DNA from: Schmidtea polychroa
Lineage: Eukaryota
Reading direction: 5' to 3'
Length of the DNA: 64,000 bases
Assembly (NCBI GenBank): GCA_044892525.1
Contig: CM097885.1
Coordinates: forward strand, 28,398,001-28,462,000
Part shown: positions 10,111 to 26,743 of the stretch, one piece after another
Position numbering within the stretch: the first letter of the stretch is position 1
Layout of the letters: the number at the start of each line of letters is the position of its first letter
Position numbers and translations under genes: made by a program
Notes under the pieces: model-generated
The model's database searches: none
Told to the model about the DNA's origin: nothing
The model's input: only the letters and a program-made list of their open reading frames with translations

Positions 10111-12184
10111 AGAGAGCTTAAAGACTATAAATCAGTAATATATCAATGTTTTTTGATACTCACAAATTTTCGGCATTGCCTTTTTCAATTTATTTGTGGA
10201 TGACATCCTTAACATGATGGAACAAAACAAACACAAAATTTTAAATCAAAATATAAAGATAATTTCTTCAAACGAAATCTTCATAGTGATAAATTTGTAG
10301 GTCATTGGGAATCATAATGACCGGACAAAAGAAAAATATTTTCAAATTTGCTTATTCTGAAAAGCAATAAATTATATTTAATTAATCATAAAAATAAAAG
10401 TCTTTAATTCATTATTTTTGATTGTTAAAATAACTAATTTACAAAATCATGTTCAATTGACTAAACGATGCACAAGTATTGATTTAAACAAATTAATATG
10501 AATTAAAAAATTTAAATAAATATAAATAATAAACTGTTGCAGTAAATTAAAACAAAATATACAAGAAACACAATTTATCTAAATTAATATTTTTTCCTAA
10601 TTCTTTTAGCGATTTTTAACTCGTTGAATTTTGATCGGTTAATGAAAATTATTATCTGTTTCTCTCTTTATGATTTTAATTTTATCCATTTTTTCTATCA
10701 TTCGAAAAAAATATTTTAATGTACTTCTATTTATAAACAATTTTTGCATACGAGATGAAATGTATATAAATATTAATTATTTTATTTTCCTAAAAAAGAC
10801 ATTTTATAAATACCCAAATGAATTACTCGTTGTAATTTATTAGGTTTTTTATTAACTACTATAAAACTCATTTACTAATAAAATTAATTATTTTTATGCA
10901 ACATAAACATTGTTGACTTGTTGCAGCAAAATCAACAAAATTAATAAAAAAAATTGATAAGGACTGCAGAAAATCTGTCAAAAATATTGGTAGCACTTTT
11001 TGCTAGATTTTTTCTTCTGTAACGATTAAAATTATTATAGCAATAACATTTTTTTTATTTCAGTCAAAATTTTTATATTTTTTATGCATGTTTTTACTTT
11101 TTCACTCTTGAAATTTCAATATTGAAAAAAATAAAAAAAAAAAAAAAAAACACGAAAAACTTTTAACTGGTTTTCTTTAAAATACTTTCTTAAGAGTGAT
11201 ATCAATAGTAAAGTTTCGACCAGGACCTTGAGTCCTGCAAATGTTATGATGGCAAATGCCATTCATTACACCAAAATGCAAATGATTTATAATGAAGAAA
11301 CTTCAACGTTTACGTCAATATGTTGGAAAGAGGTAGATATGTGAATATGTTTAAAGCTTACAAATACTACAAAATATTACCAAATACGTACAGAGTCAAC
11401 GAAAATGTAAAAATTGAATAATAGTTGATGCGGAAGATTGGTAAGTGCTCAAATTCAGTGGGACATCATCTTATACAAATTGTATTTATGATCTACAAAG
11501 GTCAGTAAAATAAATTAATATTTAATTAAATTTTTAATTAAATGGGAAAAATAATGAAAAATGAAATTTCAAGTGTCGAAATTTTAGTACAAATATGAAC
11601 AAATTTTTAATAGTGTTCGACCTCATAAATTAGCGTAGAAGCTAATTCCAGAAAATCAGGTCTTCTTGAATCTCAAACTAAAGCGTAAATTTTTTTGATC
11701 AATTTAGCCAGCATTTGTTGTCTAATTTCTATCATATAGGATATTTAATTGTGATATTTTATTGTAATTATTGTTATTTGGTAAATAAAAGATTTACTAA
11801 TTAGCCAATTTAAGGAACCCTTATGAGTATATAATTATTTCGCCTAACCCGGGATCATAAATAATAGAATATTCACAATCAAGGTAGTACATCTAGGTAG
11901 TAACAAAAATGTTTAAATATTATTTTATTATTAGATACACAAACCAGTTTTGAGGATTTATCAAAAGATGGTGAAACTAGTATTGAATCGCATCGGACCA
12001 TCTGGTAACTCTATTAGTGCAAAAGTATAATCATTTTACTCTTAAAAATTAGTATGTGTCGTTTCGCTGAAGTGAGTAGGTAGATAGTGGCTTACGGCAA
12101 CAATTACCCCCCCCCCCGGGGGGGGGGTTGTTGCAACTTTTTTTTGTTGCCTTAATTTTTTTGTTGCAACTTTTGATTACGCAA

Positions 12185-12870
12185 TTTTTCACACTATAGT
12201 GAGGGGGTCTCGATGGTCCTGGGATTTTCAATGCAAAAAAAATTTTTCTATACAAAAACGATGGTCCTGGGATTTTCAATACAAAAAAAATTTTTCTATA
12301 CAAAAATCCGACTACCACCAAAAAAGCATGGAATTTTCACACTATAGTGAGGGGGTCTCGATGGTCCTGGGATTTTCAATACAAATAAAATTTTTTCTAT
12401 ACAAAAACGATGGTCCTGGGATTTTCAATACAAATAAAATTTTTTCAATACAAAAAGGCGGTCTCACTAAAAAAGCATGGAATTTTCATACTATAGTGAG
12501 GGGGTCTCGATGGTCCTGGGATTTTCAATACAAAAAAATTTTTTCAATACAAAAAGGCGGTCTTCAATAAAAAAGCATGGTAATTTAAGGTCTCAGGATA
12601 TTTTCTATACAAAAATCCGACTACCACTAAAAAAGCCAAGGATTTTTCAGACTATAGTGAGGTGAGTCTCCTTGGACCTGAGAAAAAGGTGGTCTACACT
12701 AAAAACGTGGTAAATTTTTCAATTAAAGTAAATATTTTCAATACAAAAATCCGATTATCACTAAAAAAGCATGGAATTTTCAAAGAAAATTAATGCGGGT
12801 CTCCTTGGTCCTGAGAATTTCAATAGAAAAAGGTGGTCTACACTAAAAAAGCGTGGTAAATTTTTAAAAT
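12185..12870. repeat. Subterminal modular tandem array (GATGGTCCTGGGATTTTCAATACAAAAA / ACTATAGTGAGGGGGTCTC / AAAAAGCATGG modules)
   Basis: Direct reading; mirrored and expanded at ~25440-26630. Confidence 0.85.
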
Positions 12871-25900: not shown

Positions 25901-26743
25901 TTTATTGATAGTCGGATTTTTGTATTGAAAATATCCTGAGACCTTAAATTACCATGCTTCTTTATTGAAGACCACCTATTTGTATTGAAATTCTCAGGTC
26001 CAAGGAGACCCACCTTAATTTAATTCGAAAAATCTATGCTTTTTTATTGATAGTCGGATTTTTGTATTGAAAATATCCTGAGACCTTAAATTACCATGCT
26101 TCTTTATTGAAGACTCACCTCACTATAGTCTGAAAAATCCTTGGCTTTTTTAGTGGTAGTCGGATTTTTGTATTGAAAATATCCTGAGACCTTAAATTAC
26201 CACGTTTTTTTTAGTGTAGACCACCTATTTCTCAGAACCAAGGAGACTCACCTCACTATAGTCTGAAAAATCCTTGGCTTTTTTAGTGTAGACCGGCTTT
26301 TTGTATTGAAAATATCCTGAGACCTTAAATTACCATGCTTTTTTATTGATAGTCGGATTTTTGTATAGAAAAAAATTTTTTGTATTGAAAATCCCAGGAC
26401 CATCGTTTTTGTATAGAAAAATTTTTTTGTATTGAAAATCCCAGGACCATCGAGACCCCCTCACTATAGTCTGAAAATTCCATGCTTTTTTAGTGAGACC
26501 GCCTTTTTGTATTGAAAAAATTTTATTTGTATTGAAAATCCCAGGACCATCGTTTTTGTATAGAAAAAATTTTATTTGCATTGAAAATCCCAGGACCATC
26601 GAGACCCCCTCACTATAGTGTGAAAAATTGCGTAATCAAAAGTTGCAACAAAAAAATTACGGCAACAAAAAAAAGTTGCAACAACCCCCCCCCCCCCCGG
26701 GGGGGGGGGGGTAATTGTTGCCGTAAGCCACTAACTACCTACT
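19941..26743 (-). repeat. Right arm of giant inverted repeat
   Basis: Reverse complement of 12075-18833. Confidence 0.9.

Follow-up and report, generated by a model that had tools for sequence, protein, structure and literature searches.

Polintons (Mavericks) that depend on others are already known, and Kapitonov and Jurka reportedly described short palindromic non-autonomous forms from nematodes in 2006. Intact vertebrate Mavericks average 16,862 ± 1,678 bp, a narrow size range that has been read as a capsid constraint, and they carry a perfect (AGT)2 end motif; particles of animal Polintons have not been observed, and the source leaves virion formation open (PMC8097293). Reported terminal repeats measure 46–1,447 bp (PMC8097293) or 100–1,500 bp (10.1101/2023.08.22.554363), and those of butterfly Polintons about 2 kb, with genes inside (10.1101/2025.02.07.637071). 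Elements of C. elegans are described with terminal repeats and a polymerase and no integrase (10.1101/2024.01.15.575659), and a Maverick expansion has been reported in planarians (10.64898/2025.12.11.693146; for further related literature see PMC6431247). Among other systems, snap-back defective viral genomes are full-length palindromes without coding capacity that compete for the replicase (PMC13506859), helper-dependent 'gutless' adenovirus vectors are brought to packaging size with filler DNA (PMC10671366), and foldback elements such as Drosophila FB and Galileo have long inverted arms with internal repeats (PMC3573991). Here we analyse a 64,000-nucleotide stretch of the Schmidtea polychroa genome (contig CM097885.1, positions 28,398,001 to 28,462,000; 'the window', numbered from its first base), which contains a gene-less palindromic element of 14,669 bp. 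Taken as a whole, the evidence is best explained by dependence on family B, a coding Polinton that this genome also harbours: we consider it very probable that the element is its non-autonomous satellite.

The element carries every testable mark of a non-autonomous Polinton. Both of its sides end in AGTAGGTAG(A/T)TAGTGGCTTACGG, read from 12075 and, reversed, from 26743; AGTAGGTAG...CTACCTACT is a terminal motif of the 5'-AG...CT-3' type, with AG repeated at positions 1–2 and 4–5. A first-pass annotation of the window had reported AGTAG...CTACT-type ends, GAAGTG on both sides, this same length and no credible open reading frame (ORF), all of which stand on reading the sequence: an ORF scan of the element found no ATG frame of at least 120 amino acids (aa) and just two of 80–89 aa, both within repeat arrays. 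No polymerase or integrase of its own was found in the element or in related loci with an identified centre, the longest stop-free frames in the arms and centres of those loci reaching merely 111–125 aa, and there is no similarity to helper proteins outside the terminal repeat. Rfam gave no structured-RNA match inside the element or in eight related loci, and the genome's 7SL gene matched nothing in the window or in 91 other loci. The arms align at 99.5% identity over 13339–18836 and 19938–25430, which narrows the earlier description of ~6.8-kb near-identical arms, identity in the outer arrays being about 80%. The boundary lies at 13539, inward of which one substitution and two small indels are found in 5.3 kb, and outward of which the sides carry unlike arrays of 48–150-base modules, with a mismatch already at base 10. 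The features of the element are as follows.

12075–26743, no strand assigned: gene-less palindromic element, one deletion-derivative copy (from its ends, the ORF scan and comparison with its family)
12069–12074, plus strand: left target-site duplication GAAGTG (from the flank, and from the X5 and X6 contigs described below, which diverge after 12074)
26744–26749, plus strand: right target-site duplication GAAGTG (from the flank)
12075–14262, plus strand: left terminal repeat, also found in family B, the coding helper Polinton; it holds the end motif, a 48–150-bp module array and minisatellites of 30 bp and 40 bp
12097–12134, plus strand: sub-terminal inverted repeat of the form GCAACAA-TTA-C(n)G(n)-TTGTTGC; its halves co-vary in other end variants
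13539–18826, plus strand: left inner arm, a mirror image of its right counterpart bar the three differences given above
14263–15320, plus strand: C/A-rich array of 7-14-21-base repeats, the first arm block without a helper counterpart
15362–15682, plus strand: internal, direct, decayed copy of the inner terminal repeat (76% identical to 13713–14014), followed by an AAT run to 15799
18549–18826, plus strand: part of a non-coding module X, 66–82% identical to polymerase-bearing palindromes
18826/18827, no strand assigned: deletion junction (from comparison with the centres of other copies)
18827–19940, minus strand: innermost right arm, unpaired through the deletion; it includes the remainder of module X and, at 19343–19437, a short dispersed repeat
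19940–25230, minus strand: right inner arm, outer limit approximate
24508–26743, minus strand: right terminal repeat, common to the helper, with a module array unlike the left one

The top strand of the left arm (14263–18826) also shows a strong C-over-G and A-over-T skew, opposite to that of the helper-derived outer part.

Direct 6-bp target duplications, as the first-pass annotation had proposed, were present at 25 of 25 end pairs examined (13 gene-less, four with one polymerase, seven of a second end type and one short remnant) and 8-bp duplications at none; one of the 25 is ambiguous in an AAT run, one stands at a displaced end and two were read by eye. In runs X1 and X2 of study P1, from which the assembly may have been made, a contig spans the left junction at single-copy depth. 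Contigs from runs X5 and X6 (study P2), with a flank divergence of about 2%, match as far as the duplication's final base, 12074, beyond which they run into other sequence, again at single-copy depth. The latter show a site without this element and fall short of showing the empty allele itself. Terminus depth summed and divided by flank depth (window 11100–12106) was ~2,084 in X1 and ~1,706 in X2 against 68 in X5 and 66 in X6, a rough measure that gives no copy number; diverged ends may drop below the 90% cut. End abundance thus seems to differ ~30-fold between P1 and P2, two sample sets under one species label.

Matches to the Polinton polymerase (PF03175) were located within end pairs of the element's type. 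One such family-B element measures 16,906 bp, is flanked by the duplication ATTTTC and has the same terminus as the gene-less element. The helper terminal repeat of ~2.2 kb is 80–87% identical to window 12075–14262, and this repeat in common with a coding Polinton was seen at L051/L052, L079 and L082–L085. Inside the repeats lie the polymerase on one side and, on the other, TBP, an A32 ATPase, an integrase with a chromodomain and two paralogous frames of 338 and 341 aa, without a Pfam match, which we read as putative minor capsid proteins. In the middle of another family-B copy there is a match to an adenovirus-type protease, together with a frame of 408 aa; in the Atlas clusters nearest to this frame (score 0.98), 14–30% of members have the double-jelly-roll family PF21738; Pfam and PDB sequence searches with this capsid candidate gave nothing, and its single-sequence structure prediction reached a predicted local distance difference test (pLDDT) value of merely 29. 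Judged from sequence, the helper is family B, a coding Polinton/Maverick of the same genome of about 16.9 kb. The autonomous Polinton gene set is found in family B and in the Polinton that neighbours the element, and is absent from the element itself. Two further claims of the first-pass annotation are borne out by this comparison, namely that the element is a non-autonomous Polinton derivative (6-bp duplications, a terminal repeat in common with a coding Polinton, no genes) and that its helper belongs to a family other than the neighbour's. Among end variants, the two sides of the sub-terminal inverted repeat, which lies 23–60 bases from the terminus, change in step; it may be a cis signal, or may simply have been copied across.

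The exact terminal 23-mer has 230 + 232 = 462 matches in the 781-Mb genome, the type-1 end-variant pattern 1,192 + 1,217 = 2,409 (with mini-unit ends, described below, counted in) and the inner-arm motif 885 + 877 = 1,762, with no match to any of the controls (reversed, for the 23-mer). A first inner-arm motif with 4,619 matches was dropped as a measure of copies because it sits in a short dispersed repeat and overcounts. The prediction that other copies exist thus holds for hundreds of young ones, the palindrome being real, mobile and inserted as a unit, and we estimate ~500–900 gene-less copies, or 1–2% of the genome, from the motif count and from 28 gene-less copies found by exact matches in the first 43 Mb of contig C1, even density being assumed. 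A long inverted repeat was seen in 19 of the 20 central stretches fetched. Fifteen copies have a delimited centre, and in these the sequence taken in the window for a 1.1-kb spacer is in fact the innermost part of both arms; the true centre is unique, A+T-rich, non-coding, 0.28–1.74 kb long and 83–100% conserved between subfamilies. The window copy lacks 2,068 bp, deleted at 18826/18827 with TAA microhomology and comprising 1.12 kb of left arm and the 0.9-kb centre. Its parent was therefore ~16.7 kb long and its match in length to the neighbouring Polinton, in which the first-pass annotation had seen meaning, is due to chance.

Several side observations concern the family as a whole. A miniature transposable element with inverted repeats (a MITE) of ~0.84 kb, which has inverted ends of 12 bases and a duplication of 8 bp, is found in the centres of L040, L041, L043 and L044, all of one subfamily, and its presence in four copies at three sites implies that it was amplified along with its host element. 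Near-identical whole-element tandem pairs lie 11.8–29 kb apart at L042 (which includes an assembly gap of 240 N), at L043/L044 and at G000:C1:9121571. Single insertions with a clean 6-bp duplication and yet two end variants occur, for example, at G000:C1:5426625, 21064581 and 24443957, which shows recombination between subfamilies, with ends exchanged. Among the end flanks of L001–L030, 10 of 30 match Polinton A, Polinton B-like sequence or the element's own sequence, and nested insertion may be preferred.

The helper also has palindromic relatives that retain its polymerase. The family-B polymerase motif has 636 + 606 matches in the genome, and among the first 100 matches listed, 64 pair up in inverted orientation 5–11 kb apart (32 pairs). 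In L053 (G000:C1:139677790-139685200), which is 89% identical to the helper and has a 6-bp duplication, the terminal repeat, polymerase and upstream region are mirrored about a 0.37-kb centre, the arms being 100% alike across the 862 bases seen twice. These palindromes use the second end type (type 2; 406 + 412 = 818 matches), and of the 22 type-2 pairs in the listed range 13 contain two exact polymerase motifs, one contains one and eight contain none; type-2 ends frame about 400 palindromes, mostly with the polymerase gene twice. Since polymerase palindromes have clean 6-bp duplications at both ends, they were already palindromic when inserted. Some type-2 palindromes (L081, L095–L120) are centred on a ~0.3-kb (270–314-base) mini unit that bears a Polinton end on each side. 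Twenty-six of the 40 best matches to this unit were examined: all 26 lie beside terminal-repeat arrays, 24 have mirrored flanks, and none is a free, MITE-like unit or has a direct duplication around it. The bases flanking the mini unit co-vary (GCGCC/GGCGC, GCGCT/AGCGC, GCGAT/ATCGC). A mini-centred palindrome looks like two half-length elements with a common double origin, and one of them has a non-coding module (module X) in common with the gene-less arm at 66–82% identity, which relates the gene-less and polymerase-palindrome classes.

We propose that the gene-less element is very probably replicated by the helper polymerase and inserted by the helper integrase, both acting in trans. After excision, the helper polymerase with its terminal protein would start at the AGTAG ends and copy by strand displacement, the displaced strand would fold to one long panhandle in which one arm templates the other, and the integrase would insert the replicated product. 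Panhandle folding and strand-displacement copying are familiar from adenovirus biology, as is the extension of a single-ended molecule at an internal inverted repeat. The palindrome itself would have originated in a similar way, from a half-length, single-ended molecule in which a short internal inverted repeat allowed fold-back, followed by extension on itself so that its length doubled; we favour this origin slightly, and the mini-centred class is its best trace. Finally, helper capsids would package only helper-sized molecules and pass them between cells, with non-coding repeat arrays and captured junk as filler. Whether capsid packaging holds the length at 87–105% of that of the helper, as the lengths themselves suggest, we regard as evenly balanced (the packaging window of adenovirus is 75–105%). 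The idea of stuffer DNA selected for capsid length stands on firmer ground than in the first-pass annotation, though still as an inference.

The lengths come from 36 type-1 end pairs under 30 kb in the first 43 Mb of contig C1. The 21 gene-less copies with both arm cores measure 14.7–17.7 kb, with a median of 16.5 and a standard deviation of 0.84, and so fall at 0.87–1.05 of the helper median; the five helpers measure 16.6–17.9 kb, with a median of 16.9. The expectation that lengths would cluster near 14–15 kb was thus right about the clustering and too low about its place. Gene-less copies exceed helpers by 28 to 5, which would fit helper interference, and the remaining three of the 36 pairs are unclassified. 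Type-2 pairs under 20 kb (n=29) have a median of 15.2 kb and a maximum of 16.95 kb, and the four known mini-centred pairs among them measure 16.0–16.95 kb. An initial histogram of sizes, with a median of 14.8 kb over 35 pairs below 20 kb, had appeared to favour the size match to the neighbour; it was dropped, as it mixed three classes.

A number of observations count against this scheme. The arm inward of 14262 (the inner 5.7 kb) matched none of the helper pieces examined, and the integrase lies in two frames in the sole helper copy read. Outer arrays, and even end variants, are often unlike within one copy, contrary to the identical outer ends that a pure fold-back model demands, and one locus discussed below displays arm-to-arm repair, so that arm identity need not stem from replication. 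The seven gene-less copies with one core motif range over 8.0–25.9 kb and one gene-less copy with unequal arms reaches 18.8 kb, outliers that probably reflect changes after insertion; nine polymerase palindromes measure 11.2–15.5 kb (0.66–0.92 of the helper), and a few type-2 pairs fall below 11.5 kb, the smallest at 8.7 kb. The clustering is also partly built in, because kin inherit their length and copies are counted when the two ends and the two cores are all present. The case for packaging is made from the lengths; no virion, free DNA, terminal protein or RNA was observed.

These points bear most on packaging, and it is a serious possibility, if one that we place somewhat short of even, that the same satellite was never packaged and moved only within the nucleus, its length going back to a founder of helper size or being fixed by, for example, end pairing. 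Such a satellite would call for no particles, and the spread of the polymerase palindromes and of the type-2 pairs (8.7–16.95 kb) would suit it, as would the common ancestry of young copies; moreover, the summed end depth in X1 and X2 is no higher than the count of assembled ends, which on that rough measure leaves no large free pool. It accounts less readily for three classes of unlike build (helper, gene-less and mini-centred) that all lie at 16–17 kb with an upper edge near 17–18 kb, for subfamilies 20% apart that have kept the same length, and for the two-ended unit of 0.3 kb, which was not found free among the 26 examined although it should replicate faster than a 16-kb element.

The inner arms of a single copy are 99.6–100% alike in 12 of the 13 copies compared (the exception being L034, at 97.3%), while between subfamilies they are 78–94% identical. 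Substitutions relative to the window copy mostly fall in both arms (both arms/one arm: L045 18/0, L048 24/1, L036 10/0, L040 29/0), with one-sided exceptions in L047 (0/10) and L050 (0/3). This likeness fits two routes, panhandle templating in replication or repair within the chromosome, and read correction in assembly could add to it. The second route is illustrated by L021/L024 (with L077/L078, G000:C2 near 183.35 Mb), where a copy sits in another Polinton and its left end consists of a 25-base terminus stub with the proper duplication ATGGCA, 1.5 kb of right flank copied in inverted orientation, and then a complete end. As read from this layout, the locus shows that one arm was rebuilt from the other in the chromosome; we also considered the mirrored flank as part of a bigger composite palindrome and rejected this, as the mirror stops after 1.5 kb. 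That arms are in general kept alike after insertion by break repair or gene conversion is plausible, although we lean against it, and it may act jointly with replication by the helper. In the window copy, identity peaks near the centre and stops sharply at 13539, as conversion tracts do. Set against this are the arm differences that persist in L034 and L047, the polymerase palindromes that inserted already palindromic, and the fact that the rebuilt arm is a single repair case.

The first-pass annotation had inferred an origin by snap-back during strand-displacement replication. A simple snap-back of the helper genome, a classical defective-interfering genome made straight from one helper end, we consider unlikely for the gene-less family. 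Construction from helper sequence is observed in the polymerase palindromes, so the idea suits sister elements such as L053, and module X ties the L053-like class to the gene-less family. Just the outer 2.2 kb of each gene-less arm is helper sequence, however, so the element is not a strict defective-interfering genome, because its inner arm is not helper DNA; the family is furthermore an old lineage with subfamilies of its own and a conserved centre.

That the element is of the foldback or hAT kind and relies on a cut-and-paste transposase, or that it is aided by the neighbouring family A, is very improbable. CTGAAGTG can be read on both sides of the window copy, family A is very abundant, and the element does have the long, internally repetitive arms of Drosophila FB and Galileo; but it lacks an 8-bp duplication and short hAT-type ends, the duplications at 25 sites are 6 bp and never 8 bp, and its ends are identical to those of Polinton B, with five bases of which family A agrees. 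A fold-back assembly artefact, to which read correction of the arms and one pair of flanks that first seemed mirrored might point, is scarcely credible given distinct flanks with direct 6-bp duplications, outer arrays that are unlike, a unique centre that is conserved and occurs in both orientations, a left junction found in short-read contigs, and the resolution of the mirrored case as a duplication-bounded rearrangement.

The neighbouring Polinton served as a control.

29446–44188, no strand assigned: family-A coding Polinton, flanked by a 6-bp duplication of its own, ATCTTT

At 14,743 bp it is the coding element that the first-pass annotation had described, and the absence of any BLAST match likewise agrees with its remark that the arms are unlike this neighbour. 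Family A was rejected as the helper, having no DNA similarity to the element or to family-B pieces beyond AGTAG, and its polymerase is 30% identical to that of family B. This polymerase is split into two frames (38833–40848 and 40818–43163), the integrase is accompanied by a phospholipase-A2-like domain, and a tRNA-like stretch lies at 30635–30707. Besides its high abundance, family A has a few inverted polymerase pairs of its own. It interrupts a hAT transposase remnant at window 28247–29493. Elsewhere in the genome, 7SL RNA genes form a 593-base tandem array (G000:C2:31932512-31980502).

We tentatively picture a satellite community, in which a capsid-making Polinton supports ~400 polymerase-only palindromes that would copy themselves and borrow its integrase and capsid, and 500–900 gene-less elements that would borrow everything. 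Both parasites may have doubled half-length units into inverted dimers of capsid size, with the gene-less ones outnumbering the helper several-fold after a burst in one host lineage. If true, no satellite of an animal Polinton would have come before it, and genomes would have offered no better sign so far that animal Polintons spread in particles. A gene-less passenger has no reason to hold 16–17 kb unless its length is measured, and would thus be a natural packaging reporter, for which the unique centre and the hundreds of copies ease a search for particle DNA. The element shows how large terminal repeats can grow. Its family adds 1–2% of the genome as long palindromes that break and self-repair, and the apparent ~30-fold difference in end abundance may help to drive rapid divergence between genomes.

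No Polinton palindrome that is gene-less and of helper length was described in the full text searched, whose coverage stops short of Repbase, preprint supplements and most subscription papers; within that literature, what is new here is the size, the symmetry and the helper-matched length. With Polintons/Mavericks the element has in common the AG...CT ends, the 6-bp duplication and the terminal repeats, although its end lacks the perfect (AGT)2 of vertebrate Mavericks. Its arms differ from Polinton terminal repeats in being gene-less, 7–8 kb long and ~95% of the element, which has kept full helper length with no shrinkage. FB and Galileo move by a P-type transposase and make duplications of 7–9 bp, whereas the element has 6-bp duplications and Polinton ends. 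It resembles snap-back genomes in being a palindrome over its whole length without coding capacity; those molecules and adenovirus sub-genomes are, however, transient, helper-derived and unintegrated, whereas the element is heritable and integrating, with an inner arm that is not helper-derived. Like a gutless vector or a DNA satellite, it has merely its ends and cis signals in common with its helper, and it differs from gutless vectors in being natural, palindromic and chromosomal.

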